From a virus (taxonomy: Duplodnaviria > Caudoviricetes), in IMG/VR virus record IMGVR_UViG_3300026088_000016, positions 1-64,000 of that record: a stretch of DNA of 64,000 bases; one strand, written 5' to 3'. This document shows, in pieces, positions 8,379 through 47,483 of the stretch. Within the stretch, counting starts at the first letter, position 1, and each line of letters opens with the position of its first letter. Below the pieces are notes generated by a model. It searched no databases. It saw only the letters and a program-made list of their open reading frames with translations, and was not told the DNA's origin. Both the position numbers and the translations under genes were made by a program.

Positions 8379-8593
8379 GCCGGAGAGACAAGCTTTTTCT
8401 GGTGGGGTGGATGTCCGCCCGGCTCGGGGAATTAACGGTTGAATCCCGCGAGGACTGGTCAGACGTATCGTTGGACGCGATAGCCCGGGCTCATCTTCGG
8501 CTGTCATACTTCCGGGAAATTTATCGGTTGAATCGTGAACTGGTGGAGGAAGTTGACATCCCCGCCCCCGCGTGCTACTTTCAGGGACGATGA
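8375..8593 (+). CDS. Hypothetical protein
   Basis: ATGA overlaps on both sides. Confidence 0.55.
   Translation: MSRRDKLFLVGWMSARLGELTVESREDWSDVSLDAIARAHLRLSYFREIYRLNRELVEEVDIPAPACYFQGR
8553..8581 (+). promoter_or_regulatory. Strong sigma70-type promoter TTGACA-N17-TACTTT with extended TG
   Basis: Ends 9 nt before the recombinase ATG. Confidence 0.7.
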
Positions 8594-9339
8594 ATGTTTT
8601 TGGTTACCTCCGTGTTTCGGGCAAAGGCCAGCTTGAAGGCGACGGCTTCGACCGTCAGCGCGACTCCATCCAGAAGTTCTGCGACTTCAAAGGCTGGCGC
8701 GTGATTCGCTGGTTCGAGGAGAAGGGAATCTCCGGCACCTACGAAATGGACGACCGGCCGGCGCTGACCGAGCTGGTCTCCCTGCTCGGCCCGGGGACCA
8801 CAGACACTTTTGTCGTTGAGAATGCCGACCGGCTCGCGCGAGACCTGATGGTCTCCGAGCTCATACTCGCTGATGTGAGGAAACTCAACGCCAAAGTTTT
8901 CGCCGCGGAATCGCAAATGGAGATGACCACCTGCGGAGACCCGACGCGGGTGCTCATCCGACAGGTGCTCGGCGCGGTCTCCCAGTGGGACAAGTCGATG
9001 CTCGTGAAGAAACTCCGAGCGGCCCGGGACCGGAAGTCTGCCGCGGGGGGCCGGCGCATTGAGGGCCCCAAGCCGTATGAGCTGCGGAGCCCGGAGGCCA
9101 AGGACGTGGCCCAGTCGATTTACGAGATGCGTGAGCGCGGGCTCACCTTTTTGGAGATTGCGAATTTTCTGACGAAGAAATCAATCCCGACTCCGGAAGG
9201 AAAATCCTACTGGCTGCGGTCATCCGTCCACTCAATCTATGAACGCCATTCCCGTCGTTTTCGACGCGCCGAACCTGTCCGAGTCAATCCGGAGATGGTT
9301 GACCAAATCGGACACGTCCTGCCCCAACCCGCGGTGTAA
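8590..9339 (+). CDS. Serine recombinase (resolvase catalytic domain plus short recombinase/HTH domain)
   Basis: GYLRVS (catalytic Ser), RQ, E.GISG, RPAL, DRLARD motifs; C-terminal helix-turn-helix with PTP.G..W. Confidence 0.9.
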   Translation: MNVFGYLRVSGKGQLEGDGFDRQRDSIQKFCDFKGWRVIRWFEEKGISGTYEMDDRPALTELVSLLGPGTTDTFVVENADRLARDLMVSELILADVRKLNAKVFAAESQMEMTTCGDPTRVLIRQVLGAVSQWDKSMLVKKLRAARDRKSAAGGRRIEGPKPYELRSPEAKDVAQSIYEMRERGLTFLEIANFLTKKSIPTPEGKSYWLRSSVHSIYERHSRRFRRAEPVRVNPEMVDQIGHVLPQPAV

Positions 9340-23759: not shown

Positions 23760-23915
23760 GTGAATTTGATTTTCGACAATCTCGAACCACTCTTGAAGGC
23801 GCTTGTTCTCATGGGACAAGCGGGTGTGGCTTTCGTCACCATCCTTTACATTTACTCGAAGTGGAAAAACTCTCGGAAGGGACCGCCGAAAGACAACGAC
23901 GAGGAGTCTGAATAA
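23760..23915 (+). CDS. Small single-TM protein, holin-like
   Basis: Hydrophobic [22 protein letters not shown] followed by a charged tail; GTG start assumed. Confidence 0.45.
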
Positions 23916-31645: not shown

Positions 31646-32977
31646 ATGGGTCAAGTTCTATCATCGGGCACGTCAATCATCTCCGGGGTGCTGGAGAAGC
31701 GCGCCGCCGACAAAGCGTATAACACGCAGAAACACGGCGTCATCAAGCAACAGAAGTTGCTGGCGGATGAATACAACCCGGACCGCGTAAATACGCTGGT
31801 CAACAAGTATGACAAGGGCTTCCTCCAGAAGCGGCTCGATTTGCAGAAGGAGTTCGACCCGGAACTCTTCGCACTCCGCGAGCAGGGCAAGAAAAATCTC
31901 CTGACGGAGCTTGGCCGCGATAACGCGACCCGCATGTCGCAGAAAGTCGCGACGAAGCTGTTCGACGAGAACATCAACCCGAACGAAAGCTCGGAGAAGC
32001 TCAAGGACAAACTTTTCAATGAGGCCAACTCGGCTCTGGAGCAGGGTGCGTCTCTCCCGCCGGAATTTCAGGCGGAACTGGTCCGCTCAGGTCTCTCTGG
32101 TGCGGCCGGCAGCGGATTTACCCTCGACAAGAAGTCGATTGGCGGTCCTGTGGCGCACGCGCTCGGTTCGGAGGCCATCAAGCTCCAGCAGATGCGCCAG
32201 CAGCAGGCAATCCAGCTCGGGCAGGCCGGGCAGCAGCTCACTGACGCGCGCACTCGCATCCTGAGCAACATTTTTCCGACGATTCAGAATTCGGAGCAGA
32301 CGGCCGAGGGTCGGAGCGCCGCGGCGTTCGCCATCGGCAACGAGAATCTCCCGAGTGGCGGTCTCACCGGCAAGGAAGCTCTGAGCTACGACATTGCCGG
32401 CAAGGAAGGCAATCGTCAGCTCACCGGTCAGAAGTATGACATGCGGGCGAACAAGACCCTGCGTAACGCGGCCTTCACGAACAATCTCATCGGTCAGTTG
32501 GGGTCCGCAGGCGGACTCCTCTATACTCCGCAGCAATACGACACGGGCCAAGGCCCGGGAGTCGGTGGTCCAGTTGCAGCCCCGGCCGGAGGCGGCGGTG
32601 GCGGTGGAGACATGCTCGGTGGTTTGCTGGGCGGAGGCGGCGGTGGCGGTGGTGGCGGAGGCGGCGGTGGAATGAATATCAGTTCCATCATCGGACTCGC
32701 GGCCATGTTCTGCGACGCAACCATGAAGGAAGTGACCGGTCAGGTTTACCCGTCGGACATTCTCGCGAAAGTTCGTGAGCTCCCGATGAGCCGCTGGAAA
32801 TACATCAACCCGGTTCTCGGCGAAGGAGAACACATCGGCACGATGGCTCAAGATTTTAACCGACTCTTTCCGAATGAAGGGGGCGACAAGGTGATTCCAA
32901 TGGTGGACATCATCGGAGTATTGCTCGCCTCGGTTCAGGCCCTCGCGAAAAAAGTCGAACAGTTGGAGAAACGATAA
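31646..32977 (+). CDS. Ejection/pilot protein with a C-terminal peptidase S74-like chaperone domain
   Basis: Gln-rich coiled coil, Gly-rich linker, then CD...K, W.Y, HIG.MAQD, D..GVLLASVQAL..KV..LE. Confidence 0.75.
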   Translation: MGQVLSSGTSIISGVLEKRAADKAYNTQKHGVIKQQKLLADEYNPDRVNTLVNKYDKGFLQKRLDLQKEFDPELFALREQGKKNLLTELGRDNATRMSQKVATKLFDENINPNESSEKLKDKLFNEANSALEQGASLPPEFQAELVRSGLSGAAGSGFTLDKKSIGGPVAHALGSEAIKLQQMRQQQAIQLGQAGQQLTDARTRILSNIFPTIQNSEQTAEGRSAAAFAIGNENLPSGGLTGKEALSYDIAGKEGNRQLTGQKYDMRANKTLRNAAFTNNLIGQLGSAGGLLYTPQQYDTGQGPGVGGPVAAPAGGGGGGGDMLGGLLGGGGGGGGGGGGGGMNISSIIGLAAMFCDATMKEVTGQVYPSDILAKVRELPMSRWKYINPVLGEGEHIGTMAQDFNRLFPNEGGDKVIPMVDIIGVLLASVQALAKKVEQLEKR

Positions 32978-34729: not shown

Positions 34730-37700
34730 ATGCCCAACTCTGCCACATCGACAGACCCCTTTGCGGGTCTGGAGGAAGTCAAAGCTCCGTCTTCGGCCGC
34801 TCCGGACGCATTCGCCGGACTCGAAGAGGTGAAGGCCCCGGAGGCGGACGCCTTCTCTGGCCTGAAGCCGGCGGACAATCTTGACTTGCAGGATGAGTCT
34901 TCACTTGCAGGAGACGACGCTTTTCGTCCCGCGCAGTTCATCGCAGAAAATCCGGGTGTCGTCAATGAGCCGGACCGTTTCAAAAAGCTCATCAACGTCT
35001 ATCGCCAGAAGCGGGTGACCGGTCTCAGCGCCGGCAAGGTTGCCGCGGCGGCGGTTCACGAAGCTCCCGGCGTCATCGCGAAGACAGTCAAGGGCGCAGG
35101 CCAGCTCATCAAGCGCGCGGTGGACATCGGTGTCCAGCCGGCCGCGAACGAAGTTCTCGGACTCGTCACCGGCACCAATATGGCGCCGCTCCGCGAGGAG
35201 ACCCGCAAGGGACAACTCAAGGCAGCGGGTGAAATTGCCGCGGGCACTGAGCAAGCCGTCACAGGTCTCGCACAGCTCGGCGGGCAGGCCGCTCGAAAGC
35301 TTTTTGGCACCGCGCCGGACAAGCTTACGGACTCCGAGCTCTACGACCAGCTTCTGGTCGATTCCGAATTTCATAAGCAGACCAATCAGATTGCGCAGGG
35401 TAACAGTGACCTGTCGAAGTCGATTGGTCTCGACTCAGAGTTCCTGTCCAAGAACGGAGTCCAATTGGACCCGAAGGCGATTGAGAATCTCTCGCTGGTG
35501 GACCCGCTGACTCTGGTGGCGACCGCAGGTGTTTTCAAGGTGGTGGGGGTTGGAGGAAAAGTGATTGCTACCGCAGCGACCAAGCTGGGTGGAGAAGCAG
35601 TCATCAACGGTCTCAAGACGATTGCTGGAAAAAGTTTGCAAGCTGCCGGTCAGGTGGCCGCAGCGACCGGCAAGGTGATTCAGAAAGCTCCGCTCCGCAC
35701 TCCAAGTGTGGCAGCGATTGGCGGAAGTCTGGCGACGGGGAATGTTCCCCATGCAATCGCGGCGTCGGTTGTCCCCGCGGCGGTCCGCTTGGGCGGTCGC
35801 GCGCTCGAAGCCGGCGGACGAGTCGCGGCCGAAGTCGGTCAGGCGGCAGTTCCCGGGTTCATTGGTCCTCCGACCGCAGCAGCGGCGCGTCTCGCGCAGA
35901 TTGCTGCCTCTCCGGCCGCTCAGGTGGTCAAAGGGGTGGCCAAGGGTGGCGCGGCTGGTGCGGCCCTCGCGGCTCCGTTAGCTCTCGCGGCCGACGAGAA
36001 CCAGACGGCCGGCGCAATCCTCGGTGGTGGCGCAGCGCTTGGTGCAGTGGCCGGCGCGGCTCACGTTGGCGGAAAGATTGCCGGCAACGCCGTGGCCAAC
36101 GTCGTGGCGAAGAAGTTTTTCGACCCGCACTCGATTCCTTTCGAGCCGGTTCAGTCCCCCGGCTACGGAGTGGACAAAGCATTGGATGCAACGCACGATG
36201 CGGCGATGCAGACCCTCTCAGCACCCGAGCAGAATGCTATCAATAATTTCCGGGAGGCTCTCCGCGCGCAAGGCGGCGAGATTTATGTGCAGGACCCGCA
36301 GGCTTATGCCGACCGGATTCGCCAAAGTCTTCAGGCTGAGAACGGCGGCGGTCCGCTGACCCCGGAGCAGGAAGCGAAAGCGACGGCGTATGCCGACACG
36401 CACGCGGAGTTCGACGGGTTCATCACGGACTCGAACGGCCAGCCGCGGCGAGTGGTCTTCCTCAACGGCGGCGCCAAGGGTCTCCCCCATGACGCGGGGC
36501 ATCTTTTTCAGTCGCTGTTGGACCCACAGAAGCAGACGCAGCTTCGGGATTCAGTTTTCCAGTCATACACGCCGGAGCAACTGAATGAGTTCGGCAAAGC
36601 CTACACGGACCGTCTCGGGGACCCGGAGTATTTCAACAAGCTCGGGGAAGAGGCCGGACGCAATAAGATTGCGGACGAAATCATCGCCGAGAACTTCAGC
36701 CAGTTGTTCGGGAATACCCCGCTCTCGGAGCTCAAGGGGCCCAAGTCATTCTTGGAGACCCTCGGACGCACTGCGGCGGAAGCCGGAGAATCCCTCGGTC
36801 TTGACCTGACTGGTGGTCGGACGACCCCAGACCTTCAGGCGACTCCTTCCATCCGTCTCCAGAACGTGCTTCGGAATGCGTCCCGGGAAGTCCTGAACGC
36901 GCCGGCCACAAAGGAGAAGCTCACACTGACCAAGGCGACCGCGCCGGAGAAAGTTCCGACGGCCGCAGAGATTCCGGCAGTGTCCGCTAAACCAGACGCT
37001 ATTCAACCGCCAGTGTCTGCTAAACCAGACGTTGCCGCAGAACGCGCGAAGGTCACGGGCATTGCTGAAGCCCGCGAGCTCACCAAGGATAACCCGGAGG
37101 CTTCGGCCACGGTGGATACCATTTCCAAGTCGATGGAGGCTGGGAATCCCGCGCTCAAGATTGAGCATCGGGGGATTACTTCCCAAGCCCCCGTCGGCCC
37201 ACGCGGAGAAGCTCGTGGTCCTCGCCGCGGCACGCAGGAAGCCGGCTATGCCGAGTTGGAGCGGCTCCAGATTGAGAATCGTGCGAACGCGCCGGAGTCG
37301 GTCGTCTCGGTCCATGAGAAAACTTTTGTGCCGGTGCGTTGGGTGAATCAAGGTGGCAAGGCCACGCTCATCGCGATGTCGATGGACAAGATTCTCGGCA
37401 ACATCCGGAAGATTACCGAAGAGGCCGCAGCGAAGAAGGCCGACAAACTCATCCCCTACGAAAGCGTTGGTGGAGAACTCACGGAGAAGGGTTGGAATGA
37501 AGCTCTCGCCGATGTTAAGACGTATGCGGAAAATCAGTCTAATGGGTATCGTGGTGATGGGGCTCGTCTTGTCCGACCTAGCGATGAGGCCGGTGTCAGC
37601 ATCCCGGCGGAGAATCCGAACTACACTCCGAAAACTCTCGGGGAAGCTCAGGCGAATTTCGCGAATCTCGTCCAAGGAATCGCACCGCCACAGACCGCGC

Positions 37701-40700
37701 GAATGGTCAAAGGACAAGTTCCCGGCAACGTCAAGGCGCAGCTCGTCGCAGAGGTAAACCAACGGGTCCCGCAGCCGGTCGCGAAGATTTCCCCCAAGGA
37801 CATCACCAAGCAGACTTTTGGAAAGCCGTTCGAGGGACGCACCGTCAAAGAGACGAACCCCCTCCGCAATGAACTTTCGAGCAAGGGCGTCAACGTCCGG
37901 GCGCTGACCGAAGCGACGGAACGATTCGCCGCGCAAGACATCGCAAGTGTTGGCGAGGCCGCGCCAGAAGCGCAGATGAAGGCGCCCGTGACTGATGTCA
38001 TCCGCGGGGGATTCCTCCCGGCCGGAAAGACGGTGGAACAGTTTGGGAAAGAAATTATCAGCCAGAGCGGAGATGACTGGCTGAAGACGGCGCAAAGTTT
38101 CAAAGGTGGGCTCACTCCAGAGGCGTATCGCCTTGGGCTCGGTCTCACTGATGTCGCGGACGTGAAACGTCTGACGGACCTTCGAGATGAAGCGTTGGCG
38201 AAATATCGGGAAGAGATTACGGCGGGACGCGCGGAGGAGGCTTATCCGTGGACCACCAAGGCTCAATTTTTCTCGGAGGCCCTCGGAGCGGCAACAGATA
38301 CTGGTAGCGCGGCCAATCCTCGGGTTGGATGGCGTCGAGTCATGCCAGATGCGAAGGCCCCATTCCCGCAAGGGAAGGCCGAGCCCCGGCTCGAACAACT
38401 CCGCCCGGAACGTCTTTTCCTCCCCGCGGCGGACATTGAGAAAAGTTTGGACCCAATCAAGCGCGCGGCGATTCGGACCCGTAGTGGAAAGATTTACGAG
38501 GGCTCGTGGCACGGTGAAGCCTACACCGAGTTTGCCGACGCGATTGCGCGCGGTGAAGCGAACGAGAAGCTCCCGCCGGGATTCTCCAGTCTGACTGACT
38601 TGCTGGACTCCGTCATGTCCGGCGACCTTGCTGCCGAAGGCGTGAAAGATTTTGTCGAGGACGGTTTCGTGACCGAGAAGGGAAAGTTCCTGAATCGGGC
38701 GCAGGCGCTCGACCACGCGGAGAAGATTGGACAGTTGAAGGCTGGAGCTCCAGCAGAGAAGAACTCTGCGCGTGGCGAAGGCGTTCTGGAGTCGGCTGAG
38801 TTTGAGAACGAGCGGTCATTTCTCCCCAAGGGTGACAAGCCGATTCGTGACCTTGCGTCCGAATACGCGAAGACTGCAAAGATTCCCTACACCCCGCACG
38901 AGACCTACACTCCGCTGAATCCCAAGCTCGGGGAGAAGCTGGCGGATTTCTACGACTCGGCGAAGTCAGACCCGACTGACCCGGCGGTCCAGAAGTCGTA
39001 TCGCGCGCTGGCTGACGAGACCCTCGCACAATACAAGGCGATGACGGACGCGGGCTACACCATCGAACCGTTCAAGGGCGAAGGCGAGCCTTACAAGAAC
39101 AGCGATGAGGCGATTGCGGACATCCGGGACAACAAGCACCTCTATTTTCTCCAGACCGAGAAGACGTATGGGGCGGAAGGCGAGGCGAAGACCTCGGCTA
39201 ATCCCATGCTCGCGGACTCTGGAATCAAGATTGATGGACAGAAGCTTTTGGTGAACGACGTGTTCCGCGCCGTCCACGACTTTTTTGGTCACGGTAAAGA
39301 GGGCTATCAGTTTGGCCCCCGCGGCGAGTTCAACGCTTGGCGCGCTCACTCCGAGATGTTCTCTCCTGAAGCGCAGGGCGCGCTTGCCGCAGAGACGCTG
39401 GCCCAGAACTCATGGGTGAACTTCGGTAAGCAGGTCCGCGGAAAAGAACTCGCACTTAAGGACCGCCCGTTCGCAGAGCAGAAGGCCATCATCGTCCCGG
39501 ATGAACTCATTCAGGAAGCGAAGAACCGGAATGCGGGGGAGATGAAGTTTCTCCCCTCGAAGGAGCCCCGGGCGATTAAGGACGCCGCGGTCCAAGACCC
39601 GGAGACGGGGAAGATTTACACAGGCCGGTATCACCTCGCGGCGTTCGATGAAGCCTCGAAAGCCGGGTTGCCGGAGAAGACACTCGAAAGGCTGGTTGAT
39701 GGATTCGTCACTAATGAGGGGGAATTTCTAAATCGGGAGGATTCTTTTTCCCGGGCGGTGGAGTTGAAGCAAATTACCCCGGATGATTACCGGGAGCAGA
39801 TTCAGGCATACAAGGACGAAGGAGTGCCAGTGGCGGACGTGCCGTCATCCTTGGAGAACACTCTCTTCAACGATGTCCGTTCTGACCAACGAAAAGCGTT
39901 CTTGCCCCGCAAGAAAGCCGGCGGCAAGGTGAATCCCGAAGACCTCACCAAGCGTGATGAGCAAGGTCGCCCGCTCACGCGCGGTGGACTCGTGGATTAC
40001 ACGAAGCTCTACGCGGAGAAGTCGAAGAAGGCCAAGGAGCAGGAAGCGGCCGACCTAGCGTCGATTCCGAAGAAATACTCGGTGTCGGAGAAGATGGAAC
40101 CGCCCAAGGGTTCTCTCACCGGATGGGTGTTGCCGAATGATGAGTTCGTTCCACTTGATACTGCATATCACGAAGATTTTCTCGCTAAGAACTCGGAGCA
40201 GTTGAACAAGGAGTTCGGAACGAATCTGTCTTCAAAAGCGAACCCGGAGGAACGTCTGGGTGCGCTCCAAAAAGGTTTCGTCCGCGTGCGTTACACGCCA
40301 AATGACGGAACCGTCCGCATTGAAGCTGCCGCGAACAACTGGACTCCCAAAGTCCAGAAATCAATTCTCGACAAGCTGGAAGAGCATGAGAATTCTATCG
40401 CCCGCGTTTATGCGGCCGTGATGGATTCCAAGGGCAATGTTGTGGACTCGGTCTCAGAACGGGTGGCAGAGCTGGACGGGCCTGAACGAATCGCGGCGAT
40501 GAAAGACGCGCTGTCGCAGCTCAAAGGCGCAACGACGGAACGCCCGAAAGGTGTTGGTCCGACCGACATCCAGCGCGCACGCGCGATGGGCCAGACCCGG
40601 GAGCCACAGTTTCTTCCGAAGCCCGGCACCAAAGAGTTCAACGACTACGTGGACGCGCGCATCAAGGACAGCAAGAAGTTTCCGGAAGCGCTCCCACTCG

Positions 40701-42004
40701 AATTTCGCAAGGACGAGTCCGGGGATTACCGCACCGGATTCAATGGCGACGTTCTGCCCGTCTCCAAGGACTACGACCTCGCTGGCACTCCGCTCGCGAA
40801 GAAGTCCAAAGGCAAGACGCCAGAGCAGACCGAAGACAATTTCACCAGCGCACTCGCCAAGGGGCTGGAGAAGGAATACACGGAGGCCAAGAAGAACCCG
40901 TCCATCAAAGCTGGAGAGACGTGGTATAGCGTCTGCCGTGAGAAACTTCAGGCCCTTCTCGGTGAGGACACCAAGATGTTCGCGGAGCTTCTCGGCGCAA
41001 CGTCGCCGCAGACCAACGTCGATGCCAACTTCGCCTTCGCACTCGACGCCTACAATCAATTCAAGCGGGGCGCCTACGACAAGATGCTGGAGAAGTATCG
41101 CGAGGGCAAAACCAAATTCAAGACGGGTGACTTGGATGAGTTCATTTCTGAGACCGGCAAGAAAGGCGCAAAAGCGACCTACGACGCCTTCATGTATTGG
41201 TGGGCCGAGAAGAACAATCTCGTTCCCACTCAGAGCAACGGGAAACGATTCGGGATGAACTCCCGCGCGGTCCTTCGTGTGCTCGACGGCTCATGGCTGG
41301 AGAACGTGAAAGGTCCCAAGACCCCGAACTTCACCGGCAACCTGACGGGCTCATCCTTCGAGGCGACAATCGACGTCTGGGCCATGCGGACCCTGCACCG
41401 GCTGGCGAATGAGGGCAACCCCAAACGCTGGCGGATTCAATCCGGCAACGAGACCGGGGTGACGGACTCCGACTTTTTCACCGGGCAGAAAGCTTTTCGT
41501 AAGGCGGCGGAAAAACTGGGTCTCCAGCCGGATGCGCTTCAGGCGATTCTCTGGTTCAACGAGAAGGACCTTTGGGAGAAGAACGGCTGGACGTCATCGG
41601 TCGGAAAGAAGAAATCCGACTACAACGTGTTGCTCCAAGCGACCGAGAAGACGCCTGAGGGGTTGCTGAAGAAAGTTGACAAACAGCTCTCTTTCGACGA
41701 CCGTTCTTTCTTGCCTATGAAAAAGAAAGACTACAAAACTGCGGTGGAGAAGGCCGGATTTGAATTTCGAGACTGGCTCGACATCCTGCCTAACGGACAT
41801 GTTCTGTCGAACCCAGTTCCTCTGGTTCAGGTCCCCCGGGATGCCAAACCCCCGCCGGGATTCACTTTTCAGTGGTCCACGATTTTCTACGTCGAGGGTC
41901 ACGACCATCCTAAAGGGACAAAGATTGTCGCAATGGTTGCGGCGCCGGCAGAGAAGTCGGTTGACAAGTCGGTGTCTCCCGGCGATATTGAAGGGAAAAA
42001 GTAA
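34730..42004 (+). CDS. Giant polyvalent ejection-region protein (2424 aa)
   Basis: Ala/Gly-rich hydrophobic N-terminus, zincin-like motifs, duplicated small modules, HhH-GPD/DUF7178-like domain, seven FLP-bounded modules. Confidence 0.85.
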   Translation: MPNSATSTDPFAGLEEVKAPSSAAPDAFAGLEEVKAPEADAFSGLKPADNLDLQDESSLAGDDAFRPAQFIAENPGVVNEPDRFKKLINVYRQKRVTGLSAGKVAAAAVHEAPGVIAKTVKGAGQLIKRAVDIGVQPAANEVLGLVTGTNMAPLREETRKGQLKAAGEIAAGTEQAVTGLAQLGGQAARKLFGTAPDKLTDSELYDQLLVDSEFHKQTNQIAQGNSDLSKSIGLDSEFLSKNGVQLDPKAIENLSLVDPLTLVATAGVFKVVGVGGKVIATAATKLGGEAVINGLKTIAGKSLQAAGQVAAATGKVIQKAPLRTPSVAAIGGSLATGNVPHAIAASVVPAAVRLGGRALEAGGRVAAEVGQAAVPGFIGPPTAAAARLAQIAASPAAQVVKGVAKGGAAGAALAAPLALAADENQTAGAILGGGAALGAVAGAAHVGGKIAGNAVANVVAKKFFDPHSIPFEPVQSPGYGVDKALDATHDAAMQTLSAPEQNAINNFREALRAQGGEIYVQDPQAYADRIRQSLQAENGGGPLTPEQEAKATAYADTHAEFDGFITDSNGQPRRVVFLNGGAKGLPHDAGHLFQSLLDPQKQTQLRDSVFQSYTPEQLNEFGKAYTDRLGDPEYFNKLGEEAGRNKIADEIIAENFSQLFGNTPLSELKGPKSFLETLGRTAAEAGESLGLDLTGGRTTPDLQATPSIRLQNVLRNASREVLNAPATKEKLTLTKATAPEKVPTAAEIPAVSAKPDAIQPPVSAKPDVAAERAKVTGIAEARELTKDNPEASATVDTISKSMEAGNPALKIEHRGITSQAPVGPRGEARGPRRGTQEAGYAELERLQIENRANAPESVVSVHEKTFVPVRWVNQGGKATLIAMSMDKILGNIRKITEEAAAKKADKLIPYESVGGELTEKGWNEALADVKTYAENQSNGYRGDGARLVRPSDEAGVSIPAENPNYTPKTLGEAQANFANLVQGIAPPQTARMVKGQVPGNVKAQLVAEVNQRVPQPVAKISPKDITKQTFGKPFEGRTVKETNPLRNELSSKGVNVRALTEATERFAAQDIASVGEAAPEAQMKAPVTDVIRGGFLPAGKTVEQFGKEIISQSGDDWLKTAQSFKGGLTPEAYRLGLGLTDVADVKRLTDLRDEALAKYREEITAGRAEEAYPWTTKAQFFSEALGAATDTGSAANPRVGWRRVMPDAKAPFPQGKAEPRLEQLRPERLFLPAADIEKSLDPIKRAAIRTRSGKIYEGSWHGEAYTEFADAIARGEANEKLPPGFSSLTDLLDSVMSGDLAAEGVKDFVEDGFVTEKGKFLNRAQALDHAEKIGQLKAGAPAEKNSARGEGVLESAEFENERSFLPKGDKPIRDLASEYAKTAKIPYTPHETYTPLNPKLGEKLADFYDSAKSDPTDPAVQKSYRALADETLAQYKAMTDAGYTIEPFKGEGEPYKNSDEAIADIRDNKHLYFLQTEKTYGAEGEAKTSANPMLADSGIKIDGQKLLVNDVFRAVHDFFGHGKEGYQFGPRGEFNAWRAHSEMFSPEAQGALAAETLAQNSWVNFGKQVRGKELALKDRPFAEQKAIIVPDELIQEAKNRNAGEMKFLPSKEPRAIKDAAVQDPETGKIYTGRYHLAAFDEASKAGLPEKTLERLVDGFVTNEGEFLNREDSFSRAVELKQITPDDYREQIQAYKDEGVPVADVPSSLENTLFNDVRSDQRKAFLPRKKAGGKVNPEDLTKRDEQGRPLTRGGLVDYTKLYAEKSKKAKEQEAADLASIPKKYSVSEKMEPPKGSLTGWVLPNDEFVPLDTAYHEDFLAKNSEQLNKEFGTNLSSKANPEERLGALQKGFVRVRYTPNDGTVRIEAAANNWTPKVQKSILDKLEEHENSIARVYAAVMDSKGNVVDSVSERVAELDGPERIAAMKDALSQLKGATTERPKGVGPTDIQRARAMGQTREPQFLPKPGTKEFNDYVDARIKDSKKFPEALPLEFRKDESGDYRTGFNGDVLPVSKDYDLAGTPLAKKSKGKTPEQTEDNFTSALAKGLEKEYTEAKKNPSIKAGETWYSVCREKLQALLGEDTKMFAELLGATSPQTNVDANFAFALDAYNQFKRGAYDKMLEKYREGKTKFKTGDLDEFISETGKKGAKATYDAFMYWWAEKNNLVPTQSNGKRFGMNSRAVLRVLDGSWLENVKGPKTPNFTGNLTGSSFEATIDVWAMRTLHRLANEGNPKRWRIQSGNETGVTDSDFFTGQKAFRKAAEKLGLQPDALQAILWFNEKDLWEKNGWTSSVGKKKSDYNVLLQATEKTPEGLLKKVDKQLSFDDRSFLPMKKKDYKTAVEKAGFEFRDWLDILPNGHVLSNPVPLVQVPRDAKPPPGFTFQWSTIFYVEGHDHPKGTKIVAMVAAPAEKSVDKSVSPGDIEGKK

Positions 42005-42007
42005 CCT

Positions 42008-42181
42008 ATGAACAAGAACTTCAAGCCCCTCAAAATCGAAGATTTCAAGCTCACTCCTGAGCAAAAGAAGACCCTCGTGTCCGGCTCGCAGACGTTTCTG
42101 CCCCCGGCGGACGAGGACGGTGAACCACTGGCCACCGAGCCGGATACGCAAAACCAATCTCATGCCCCAAGTAAGCCCTGA
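42008..42181 (+). CDS. 57-aa hypothetical protein
   Basis: ATG 3 nt after the giant gene; MNKNFKPLKIEDFKLTPEQKKTLVSGSQTFLPP...; below the ORF-track cut-off. Confidence 0.5.
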   Translation: MNKNFKPLKIEDFKLTPEQKKTLVSGSQTFLPPADEDGEPLATEPDTQNQSHAPSKP

Positions 42182-43001: not shown

Positions 43002-44698
<1,697 letters not shown>

Positions 44699-45953
44699 GC
44701 TCTTACTGGACCAGCCGTCTCCCCAGAGGAGCGCGAGCCGGTCGAAGTAAGCCTGATACTGGTGCTTCACGGTCCTAATCGAATACTTCTCAACAGCTCG
44801 ACTCCTGATGTAAAAGGGGTCGAGCTTTTTTACGTCCTCGATGGCTTGCATGAACTCACCAAGGTAGTGACAACGAAAACCCGTGCGGCCTTGCTCCACC
44901 GTCTCGGTGAAACCGCCCCACGGCGTTGAGATGACGGGTGTGCCGCAAAGCTGGGCTTCGACCGCAACTTGGTTGAACGGTTCGATGTAAACCGTCGGAG
45001 TCAGGACCGCCCGGGCGCGCGACATCCAGTCGTTGCGCGTCTTCATGTCGAGCGCGCCGAGATACTCGGCCCCGTGAGTCACCAAAGACTTGTCACCGTG
45101 CCCGATGATTTTCAACGGAACCCCCGCGGCATCCGCAGCCCGGCAGGCAATCTCCAGACCTTTTCTGGGCGTGAGCCGGCCAACGTAGAGCAAAAAATCT
45201 CCCCGCTCATTCCAGTGCCGAAAAGGAAACTCAAATTCGTCGTAGAAGCAGGGGATGACGGTGTCGAAGAATCGTCCGTTCGGGATTTGCTGTGCGCCGT
45301 AGCAGACGTGCTTCCACGCTTCGCTCTCGAACACCCGGTAGGGACCAAAAGAGCCGTTGTAGCCGATGGAATACTCGACGAACATCAAGTCCGGATGCGC
45401 GTCAGCGACGGGCTTCTGGGAGGAGCCTCCGATGCTGCAAATGAAGTCCCGCGGCTGCTTGCGCTTGGCGATTTCCTTGGCCATGCGCGCGTTGGCGAGC
45501 TGCCACAACGGGGACCACTCTTCCACGTAGGCATATTGGTAGGGCGTCGGCTCCGGCTCACCCTTCGCATTTTTTGTGCTGTTGAGCAGGGTCTCCTGTT
45601 CTTCCTTTCGGACGACTGTCACCAGCTCATCGCAGGGCGCCTCATTCTGTTCGGAGGCATAGAGGATGACTTCGTGGCCGAGCTGCTTCAGCAACTCGGC
45701 AAAGCGGATGGTGGCGACGCAGAACCCGCAGAGCGAATACGCGCGGGTGGTCTGGACGTTAGGAAGGGCCAGCAGGTGGATTCGATATTTGTTCATTGGA
45801 GTCCAATCGCGAGCCCGAAGACCCGGATTCCGTATTGCCAGTGGAAGAAGGCCCAGCTTCCGGGACCGACATGACGGGGGCAGCAATAGGCGATTTCAAT
45901 CCAGCCGATGTGGATGGTCCAGACCGGACCATATTTCTGGTTCAATCGAAGTT

Positions 45954-46190
45954 TCACGAGCGCACCCCCAAGTCTCGAAGGTCCTCGGCCGAATAGACCC
46001 CCGTCAAGGTGTTGGGTGCGTCGTATTCGGTCTCGAAGTCCACGGCGACGGTCCGGGGCTTCTTCACCCTCCGGCCTTTCTCCGCGTCCTTGGCGTGACC
46101 GGTTGGATTGTTGAGTTGCTTGGCGAGACGGCGGGCTTTGGCCACTTCCATCACGCTGTTCATTCGCTGGATTGTTGCTAAGTTAAACAT
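45954..46190 (-). CDS. Hypothetical protein (78 aa)
   Basis: ORF track. Confidence 0.6.
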   Translation of the reverse strand: MFNLATIQRMNSVMEVAKARRLAKQLNNPTGHAKDAEKGRRVKKPRTVAVDFETEYDAPNTLTGVYSAEDLRDLGVRS

Positions 46191-46509
46191 AGCTCACTAT
46201 CGCACGGTCCGCGTGGATTGCAACCCTCTTTCGACGAATTTTTTCAAACCGGGAGATGAGCCCGGGGTCTTGGGATTCCGTTACGGACTCCCACAGTTCC
46301 TCGAACTGAAAACCCTCTTTGTCAGAGAGTTCCGTGCGGAGCAGAACGCAGTCCAAGCAGGTCTTGAACCTCATCGGCTCGCCGTCCCAGACTCCAGAGA
46401 TGCGCTCATACTTTTCCCCGGGACGAATCTCTCCGCGGCACTCGCAACAACGGTGCCGCTTCCGGGCGACCGGCGTCACGGTGCTACAACATTCAGGTCC
46501 GTCAATCAT
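46183..46509 (-). CDS. Small Zn-binding phage protein
   Basis: [19 protein letters not shown]...SGVWDG....KTC..C. Confidence 0.75.
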
Positions 46510-47483
46510 GGGGCGTGTCTCTGTTCGTGATACGCCAGTTCAAAATCAGCCTTCACCATCATGTTCACCAGCTCGGGGAAGCTCACCGACGGCTTCCATT
46601 TCAGAATCCGCTTGGCGCGTGTCGGGTCTCCGAGCAGCAGGTCAACCTCCGTTGGACGGAGCAGGCGCTGGTCGAATTCCACAAACTCTTTCCAGTTCAT
46701 GTCCATCGCCGAAAAGGCCAGCGACAGAAACTCCCGGACAGTGTGAGTCTCACCTGTGGCAATCACGTAGTCACCCGGCTTTTCCTGTTGCAGCATCAGG
46801 TGCATCGCCTTGACGTAGTCGCCGGCAAAGCCCCAGTCACGCTTCGCGTCCAGATTGCCGAGCACGAGCTTGTGCTGGAGCCCATACCAGATTCGGCCGA
46901 CGGCGCGGGTGATTTTCCGCGTCACGAAGGTCTCTCCTCGGCGGGGAGACTCGTGGTTGAAAAGAACCCCGTTGCTCGCGTGGAGCCCGTAGGCTTCGCG
47001 GTAGTTGACGGTGGAGTGATGGGCCAGCACCTTGGCGCACCCATACGGACTGCGCGGGTAGAAGGGCGTCGTGATTTTCTGCGGCGTCTCCACCACCTTG
47101 CCGAACATCTCGGACGAGCCGGCCTGATAGTAGCGCGCGTCCGGGCAACAGGTCCGGACCAGCTCCAGCAACCGGACGGCGCCAAGCCCGGTGGCGTCGG
47201 ACGTGTAAACCGGCTGGTCGAAGCTCACCCGGACGTGTGACTGCGCGGCGAGGTTGTAAATCTCGTGTGGCTTCACCTTCAGTAGCACTTGCGCCATCGC
47301 GGTGACGTCGAGCAGGTCGCAGTAGTGAAGAACGACTCGTTTGAAAATGTGGTCGATTCGCGACGTGTTGAAAGATGACGAGCGCCGGATGGTGCCGTGG
47401 ACCTGATAGCCGAGTTTGAGCAGGTGCTCGGCGAGGTAAGAGCCGTCTTGGCCCGTGATTCCAGTGATGAGCGCTTTTTTCAT
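46506..47483 (-). CDS. gmd: GDP-mannose 4,6-dehydratase
   Basis: [73 protein letters not shown]. Confidence 0.97.

Follow-up and report, generated by a model that had tools for sequence, protein, structure and literature searches.

We report that the giant protein of 2424 amino acids (aa) encoded by the open reading frame (ORF) at 34730..42004, plus strand, in a 64,000-nucleotide stretch of viral DNA (hereafter, the window; positions 1 to 64,000 of the IMG/VR record IMGVR_UViG_3300026088_000016, a complete Caudoviricetes virus of 72,250 bases) contains an array of modules each of which is preceded by the tripeptide Phe-Leu-Pro (FLP), and that this tripeptide is one version of a family-wide junction code, F-x-P. 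The motif is located at the boundaries of domains and of homology, the modules are shuffled among homologs, the middle residue of the motif is specific to the lineage, and residues resembling a metal site are conserved upstream of the array. On balance, sequence comparison and structural modeling incline us to view this polyvalent-type virion-module protein, with its N-terminal carrier half and C-terminal cargo array, as a polyvalent cargo polyprotein in which the F-x-P junctions are the putative sites of a phage-encoded endopeptidase. Of the enzymes that could do the cutting, a zincin-like domain embedded in the carrier half is the most likely, although its role as the protease is somewhat doubtful.

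The tripeptide FLP occurs seven times in the giant protein, with the phenylalanine at aa 1095, 1230, 1364, 1607, 1724, 1961 and 2327 (Phe codons at nucleotides 38012, 38417, 38819, 39548, 39899, 40610 and 41708), and is absent before residue 1095. From the composition of the protein, 0.45 occurrences are expected; none of 20,000 shuffled sequences reached seven, the maximum being five, and FLP is the most over-represented tripeptide of the protein. The seven sites employ six distinct nine-base codon spellings and, when a DNA repeat was looked for at these sites, no direct repeat was present, so that the motif is conserved at the protein level and an explanation at the DNA level is ruled out. 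The first-pass annotation of the window, which was made from the letters alone, had pointed to the seven motifs where less than one would be expected, to synonymous codon variation as a sign of selection on the protein, and to modules of 135, 134, 243, 117, 237, 366 and 98 aa, all of which proved correct. It had also regarded modules 2 and 4 as paralogs, and so they are (BLASTP E-value 3e-8, 29% identity).

The same annotation held that the motifs fall at domain edges. In an AlphaFold model of aa 1595-2424 (mean predicted local distance difference test, pLDDT, of 78.8), which includes four of the seven FLPs, confidently predicted domains are parted by segments with pLDDT<50 at model residues 1-9, 104-144, 341-367 and 726-741, and the four motifs, at model residues 13, 130, 367 and 733, each lie in or at the edge of such a linker; for these four, therefore, the predicted boundaries coincide with the motifs. 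Sequence comparison leads to the same picture. In the C-terminal half of the protein, no more than 10 aa separate 46% of the homolog alignment ends from an FLP, where 12% would be expected, and at the first six sites [FY]xP occupies the aligned position in 46-86% of the homologs that span the site. The individual junctions, all on the plus strand, are as follows. Junction 1 (aa 1095-1097, 38012..38020) retains [FY]xP in 76 of 88 spanning homologs, and its F is invariant and its P nearly invariant across the family. The corresponding fractions are 32/51 for junction 2 (aa 1230-1232, 38417..38425), 44/63 for junction 3 (aa 1364-1366, 38819..38827) and 46/63 for junction 4 (aa 1607-1609, 39548..39556), which is at the edge of a low-pLDDT segment. 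Junction 5 (aa 1724-1726, 39899..39907; 29/57) is inside the linker of model residues 104-144, junction 6 (aa 1961-1963, 40610..40618; 43/94) is at the end of the linker of model residues 341-367, and junction 7 (aa 2327-2329, 41708..41716) is inside the linker of model residues 726-741 and is spanned by a single homolog.

When 127 homologs were each cut at their own motif, the resulting 721 modules fell into 37 families. The same module families are found in FLP, FQP, FMP, FKP and FSP proteins, with order and copy number shuffled, and profiles made from the module families place [FY]xP at the start of modules whichever variant a protein uses. The module borders of homologs thus retain [FY]-x-P and, as seen above, predicted domain boundaries coincide with the motifs, so that neither of the two outcomes by which the first-pass annotation would have been refuted was observed. 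The breakpoints of module gain, loss and reshuffling fall at the motif. The recurring modules include the DUF7178 module of approximately 385 residues, which is usually the last, and others of approximately 260, 200, 150, 126 and 115-130 residues.

The family itself is large. The search with the C-terminal half yielded more than 250 giant homologs of 1300-3300 residues, mostly on contigs of approximately 70 kb, and an exhaustive version of this search yielded 5363 cluster representatives at 50% identity. Among viral contigs, a single-sequence scan detected no relatives and an alignment-based scan of IMG/VR detected 80 related loci. The Pfam content of the homologs varies and includes GNAT (PF00583), methyltransferases, ART-PolyVal (PF18760), DUF7178 and others. 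In the first 120 homologs, FLP occurs 354 times in total against 52 expected; the enrichment is seen in about half of these proteins and always begins near residue 1100. The homologs that are not enriched in FLP possess an over-represented tripeptide of their own, namely, FQP (up to 10 copies), FMP, FSP, FKP, FSV or YLP. Further variants come from the IMG/VR loci: nine copies of FMA(E) in L039, seven of FEP in L040, four of FRP in L041 and, in the 3381-aa protein of L075, seven of x-M-P-D, so the third position of the code can change as well. The flanks of the motif show weak preferences for small or basic residues immediately before it and for Lys/Gly followed by Glu/Lys after it. Judging by these alignments, the junction motif is F-x-P, with a middle residue that is uniform within a protein and varies among lineages (L, Q, M, S, K, E, R). 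No description of such a junction motif was found in the literature searched, and what the present analysis adds is the view across the family: the junction occupies one position, and its middle residue depends on the lineage.

The uniformity of the middle residue was assessed with sites that were located by module profiles and hence independently of the identity of that residue. Two sites of one protein that lie ahead of different module families have the same middle residue in 84.5% of pairs, compared with 33% for sites of different proteins. Which middle residue a protein has agrees with its place in the tree of the conserved N-terminal half, where L forms a large clade, M another, S and V together a third, and Q more than one. 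The FKP protein P0031, with five sites, has as its nearest N-terminal relatives exclusively FLP proteins, which points to a switch of the middle residue at all its sites. Moreover, the motif is confined to the cargo array. In the N-terminal ~1090 residues of 59 proteins, the protein's own motif was seen once against 9.8 expected (nominal P 6e-4, a value that is overstated because the sequences are related), and other F-x-P tripeptides are not depleted; in the neighboring genes of 21 loci, the own motif occurs 10 times against 11.5 expected, that is, without enrichment. Because the middle residue is uniform and yet switchable at every junction, and because the motif is confined to the cargo array, something must read it.

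The first-pass annotation offered three functions for the motif: a site of proteolytic release, a signal for docking or loading into the capsid, and a linker that enables the swapping of effector cassettes. Of the three, the processing site fits best. Processing is favored by the presence of one motif per junction, the uniform, lineage-specific x, the avoidance of the motif in the N-terminal half and the zincin-like domain upstream; loading into the capsid would not require one copy per junction; and a pure recombination linker finds no support, given that conservation at the sites does not extend to the DNA. Under the processing scenario, the carrier half (1094 residues) would enter the virion, and the C-terminal 1330 residues would comprise seven independently folding cargo modules, each preceded by F-L-P in a disordered linker. 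A lineage-specific, phage-encoded endopeptidase would recognize F-x-P and cut the array into separate proteins, either within the capsid or once the protein has been ejected into the host, so that a single incorporation signal would suffice to load many effectors at a fixed stoichiometry. The cut would conceivably occur just before the phenylalanine, such that Phe is P1', x is P2' and Pro is P3'. In Pro-Pro endopeptidases, the cleft reads positions P3 to P3', and the P3' proline is a key determinant (PMC12828418); by analogy, a cut just before F-x-P would put the proline of the motif in the same place. The release of polyvalent-protein domains by embedded metallopeptidases has been predicted previously (Iyer et al. 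2017, PMC5512222). Delivery of the giant protein into the host together with the DNA is a candidate role supported by the place of its gene among tail-fiber and virion genes and by the hydrophobic segments described below.

The carrier half has several recognizable parts, all on the plus strand. Three N-terminal D-[AP]-F-[AS]-G-L repeats, at aa 9, 26 and 40 (34754..34864), are a possible incorporation or anchoring element. Gly/Ala-rich hydrophobic segments identified in a Kyte-Doolittle scan, at aa 253-286, 334-352 and 402-448 (35486..36073), are candidate membrane-inserting parts of an ejection protein. The zincin-like domain follows at aa ~472-732 (36143..36925), with the motif H587-D-A-G-H591 (nucleotides 36488-36502) and, downstream of it, E650, A653 and E654 (nucleotides 36677-36691). 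H587, H591, E650, A653 and E654 are invariant in 32 diverse homologs, and so are G1094, the end of the carrier half, and F1095 of junction 1. The third metal ligand expected of a zincin has a counterpart here, because E650 and E654 lie 59-63 residues past the second histidine, in a predicted helix, and either of the two glutamates may be the one that binds the metal. With a model of aa 458-1110 (mean pLDDT 74.5), the VIA-align comparison of aa ~472-732 retrieved the catalytic domain of anthrax lethal factor (1yqy; Z 7.2 over 166 aa) and the Pro-Pro endopeptidases PPEP-3 (Z 6.1 over 160 aa) and PPEP-2 (Z 5.7 over 154 aa), values in the range that the tool terms middling. All rows with Z>=5 for this domain are either lethal factor and its relatives (Certhrax) or Pro-Pro endopeptidases; edema factor, YbeY and PprI appear among the weaker rows. 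The conserved residues, together with a weak but consistent fold signal, tentatively suggest a zincin. Also on the side of this candidate, the genome has no match to the two protease families searched, Peptidase_S78 and CLP_protease.

Several observations weigh against processing by this domain or against processing altogether. Among 85 homologs, approximately 56 have HExxH and approximately 28 have HDxxH; the giant protein described here has HDAGH, with Asp in the place of the Glu that is strictly expected of zincins, so that the activity may be altered or lost. In characterized zincins, replacement of the general base Glu with Asp usually cuts activity strongly. Sequence-level peptidase matches to the giant protein are lacking in Pfam, PHROGs, the PDB profile search and the searches with PF18818 and PF18838; the profile search of PDB sequences with the zincin region returned nothing except low-complexity noise. 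A Foldseek search of the PDB with the carrier-half model gave no match with E<0.001, and the best VIA-align Z is approximately 7. AlphaFold does not place junction 1 in the zincin cleft. The alignment columns that best track the L, Q and M variants lie at aa 940-1060 (982, 999, 1002 and 1047), outside the zincin domain, in a covariation test that included five Q-type and four M-type sequences and is confounded by phylogeny. Neither the DNA of the giant gene nor the N-terminal half of its product had a cultured relative among 50,697 phage records. The virion RNA polymerase of phage N4, gp50, has a metallopeptidase domain and is nevertheless reported to be packaged unprocessed (cited by Iyer et al., PMC5512222). 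Finally, that there is cleavage at all, which enzyme performs it, which bond is cut and when are inferred by us from sequence and models, which also has to be counted on this side of the balance.

Some of these observations would be accommodated if F-x-P were a non-proteolytic docking motif, such that a lineage-specific partner folds up, packages or unfolds the array without cutting it. Such a partner could be a chaperone, a protein of the capsid, portal or core, or the conserved beta-barrel region within the carrier half. The uniform, lineage-specific middle residue calls for a reader that need not be a protease, and the zincin here is devoid of the canonical Glu. In addition, aa 786-1094 (37085..38011, plus strand), where conservation within the carrier half is highest and many Pro, Gly and Asn residues are invariant, contains in the model a small beta-barrel, which in the VIA-align comparison of aa 786-1088 is WYL/Sm/SH3-like (Z 9.2 over 89 aa, PafBC). 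Small barrels of the SH3/Sm/WYL kind often bind proline-containing peptides, and the columns at aa 940-1060 that track the variants fall in this region. The motif is present, however, at every junction, even before the short last module, which suits cutting and is not something that a loading signal needs; the carrier half excludes it, as would be expected if unwanted cuts are avoided; and the association of the columns with the variants is phylogenetically confounded and based on few sequences. We therefore consider a docking role unlikely and continue to favor processing of the array.

The processing scenario can be made more specific. In the extended version, a zincin resembling lethal factor and Pro-Pro endopeptidases, with a P2' pocket that co-evolves with the middle residue, would cut before Phe at every junction, and all released effectors would start with Phe, an N-terminal residue that is destabilizing via the bacterial ClpS/ClpAP pathway, such that the phage would deliver a stoichiometric set of effectors with a built-in lifetime; we regard this whole chain as distinctly improbable. 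It is likewise improbable that the reader belongs to the host, that is, a protease or degradation adaptor acts on F-x-P after ejection, and the middle residue differs as the hosts differ. Such a host factor would be compatible with the specificity of the motif for the delivered cargo array, with the Asp at the catalytic position of the zincin here and with the genome yielding no match to Peptidase_S78 (prohead protease) or CLP_protease, the two families searched. Against it, the invariant metal-site-like residues in the same polypeptide offer a simpler reader, and host proteases of broad function rarely have such a narrow, fast-switching tripeptide specificity.

About equally improbable is a passive linker or domain cap that is kept by descent, marks the points of cassette exchange and is read by nothing: module exchange does occur at these points, and in polymorphic toxins short boundary motifs mark swappable ends, for example, VENN in CdiA, but without a reader the middle residue should drift at each site, instead of being identical in 85% of pairs within proteins against 33% between proteins, orthologous modules carry different middle residues in different lineages, and, as the sites lack conservation at the DNA level, homologous recombination cannot be guided by the motif.

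The giant protein fits the class of polyvalent proteins of phages and conjugative elements (Iyer et al. 2017, PMC5512222), which likewise are very large, encompass many unrelated domains, vary between homologs and include an embedded zincin-like domain. Polyvalent proteins have many domains (2 to 15), and here there are seven cargo modules and a multi-part carrier half; they are mosaics of varying domain content, and here 37 module families are shuffled among 127 homologs. Of the hallmark domains, ART-PolyVal, GNAT and methyltransferase are found in homologs; the giant protein itself has only DUF7178 and the zincin-like motif, and its neighbors in the ESM Atlas, LPD23/LPD1/ART-PolyVal clusters with a score of 0.95, are to be taken as a lead only. 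The differences are that Iyer et al. describe no junction motif and never use the word 'linker' (PMC5512222), whereas in the present family a defined tripeptide with a lineage-specific middle residue is found at every junction, and that the zincin-like domain, in which Asp replaces Glu, matches neither of the peptidase families of polyvalent proteins, MPTase-PolyVal (PF18818) and LPD23 (PF18838); neither family has a match in the genome.

Viral polyproteins, such as those processed by picornavirus 3C or potyvirus NIa, are similar in that one polypeptide comprises many units with a short consensus site at each junction. Virus lineages differ in the consensus of these sites, and the protease differs along with it. 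In contrast, the array described here belongs to a DNA phage and would be virion cargo, not the precursor of a replicase or capsid; a zincin is the candidate protease, and the cleavage is proposed. The analogy with viral polyproteins was drawn by Iyer et al. as well (PMC5512222). The MARTX toxins resemble the present family in having interchangeable effector modules within one giant delivered protein, unstructured linkers and an embedded protease, which here is proposed, for the release of the modules after delivery. In MARTX, the effector arrays are freed by an internal cysteine protease domain that cuts after Leu. Unlike the giant phage protein, MARTX are secreted bacterial toxins; there is no sequence or fold relation between the two, and delivery here would be by phage ejection. 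Anthrax lethal factor and the Pro-Pro endopeptidases (zincins of MEROPS family M34) are the best fold matches and share H-x3-H with a downstream Glu, but the similarity does not extend to the sequence level, the Z values are middling, and the catalytic Glu is Asp here. Finally, the internal proteins of phage T4 and the head cargo of phages phiKZ and SPN3US are brought into the capsid by a targeting part and, ahead of ejection, undergo trimming at short consensus sites. The cuts there are made after Glu, by a dedicated prohead protease, in proteins that are separate from one another; here, by contrast, the sites join modules of a single polypeptide, and the prohead protease and CLP_protease searches mentioned above drew a blank.

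With respect to the cargo itself, the giant protein contains module families in the order 4-2-1-2-3-0-x (all coordinates are on the plus strand). Module 1 (135 aa, 38012..38416, family 4) has no Pfam match; module 2 (134 aa, 38417..38818) and module 4 (117 aa, 39548..39898; confidently folded in the model) are the paralogs of family 2; module 3 (243 aa, 38819..39547, family 1) matches phrog_3170, of unknown function, and gave no usable match in an ESM Atlas search; module 5 (237 aa, 39899..40609) belongs to family 3. Module 6 (366 aa, 40610..41707, family 0) is DUF7178 (PF23802, E 9.8e-11), and module 7 (98 aa, 41708..42001), modeled with low confidence, is without relatives among the sampled homologs. 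Searches of Pfam and PHROGs with the whole protein and module by module gave no names other than DUF7178 and families of unknown function. The model of module 6 is most similar to 3knt in Foldseek (probability 0.99, E 0.03) and to 3n0u in VIA-align (Z 8.7 over 182 aa), where all the top 20 rows are of the HhH-GPD superfamily; as modeled, module 6 is of a HhH-GPD DNA-glycosylase-like fold. In cultured phages, module 6 has distant matches alone, in Gordonia, Mycobacterium and Tunturiibacter phages. DUF7178 is the most widespread module of the family and is present also in giant proteins on viral contigs of approximately 40 kb (L045-L081). The trees of module families 1 and 0 are arranged mostly by variant, with 11 and 18 changes, respectively; these trees are weakly resolved, so that they do not prove transfer between lineages.

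The giant ORF is located in a virion gene region. Upstream of it are a weakly terminase-like ORF, collagen-like tail-fiber genes, an ORF with a weak internal-virion-protein match and a gene for a fiber-like protein with a C-terminal Peptidase_S74 intramolecular chaperone domain (31646-32977, plus strand; E 1.4e-7), and a further fiber gene is found downstream. The collagen-like fiber genes are at 23915, 25256 and 43001, and the Peptidase_S74 fiber gene lies within the same run. Converging on the last fiber gene, on the minus strand (44630-47483), are genes for a glycosyltransferase (phrog_3408) and a nucleotide-sugar epimerase/dehydratase-like protein (phrog_540); the minus-strand part of the window encodes, along with the glycosyltransferase and the nucleotide-sugar enzyme, a DNA polymerase, a helicase and an exonuclease. 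A serine recombinase/invertase-like gene (8572-9339, plus strand; phrog_95/125, E 7e-31) sits in this otherwise lytic-looking genome.

The first-pass annotation also noted FLP in the flanking ORFs 33506 and 42008. The tripeptide is indeed present once in each, but in neither does it follow the junction code in relatives. The FLP of ORF 33506 is absent from the orthologs in L002 and L024, which rules it out as part of the code. ORF 42008 (42008-42181, plus strand) encodes 57 aa, starts four nucleotides past the stop of the giant gene and is conserved downstream of the giant gene in approximately 20 related loci, with the pattern L-[TS]-P-E-E ... G-[SA]-Q-x-[FY]-[LM]-P followed by an acidic tail. 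The corresponding position, which is conserved in the family of this small protein, reads FLP, YLP, FMP, HFP, FLA or YLS regardless of the variant of the giant protein, so this occurrence is rejected as well.

The cutting of polyvalent proteins was predicted in 2017 without defined sites, and the family described here supplies exact, testable ones. Moreover, its natural site variants (L, Q, M, S, K, E and R) form a series, each member of which could be paired with its own carrier half in studies of specificity. If the junctions are indeed cuts, pairs of junction and enzyme would be orthogonal processing tools, and the modules would constitute a catalog of independently acting phage-delivered proteins, mostly of unknown function.

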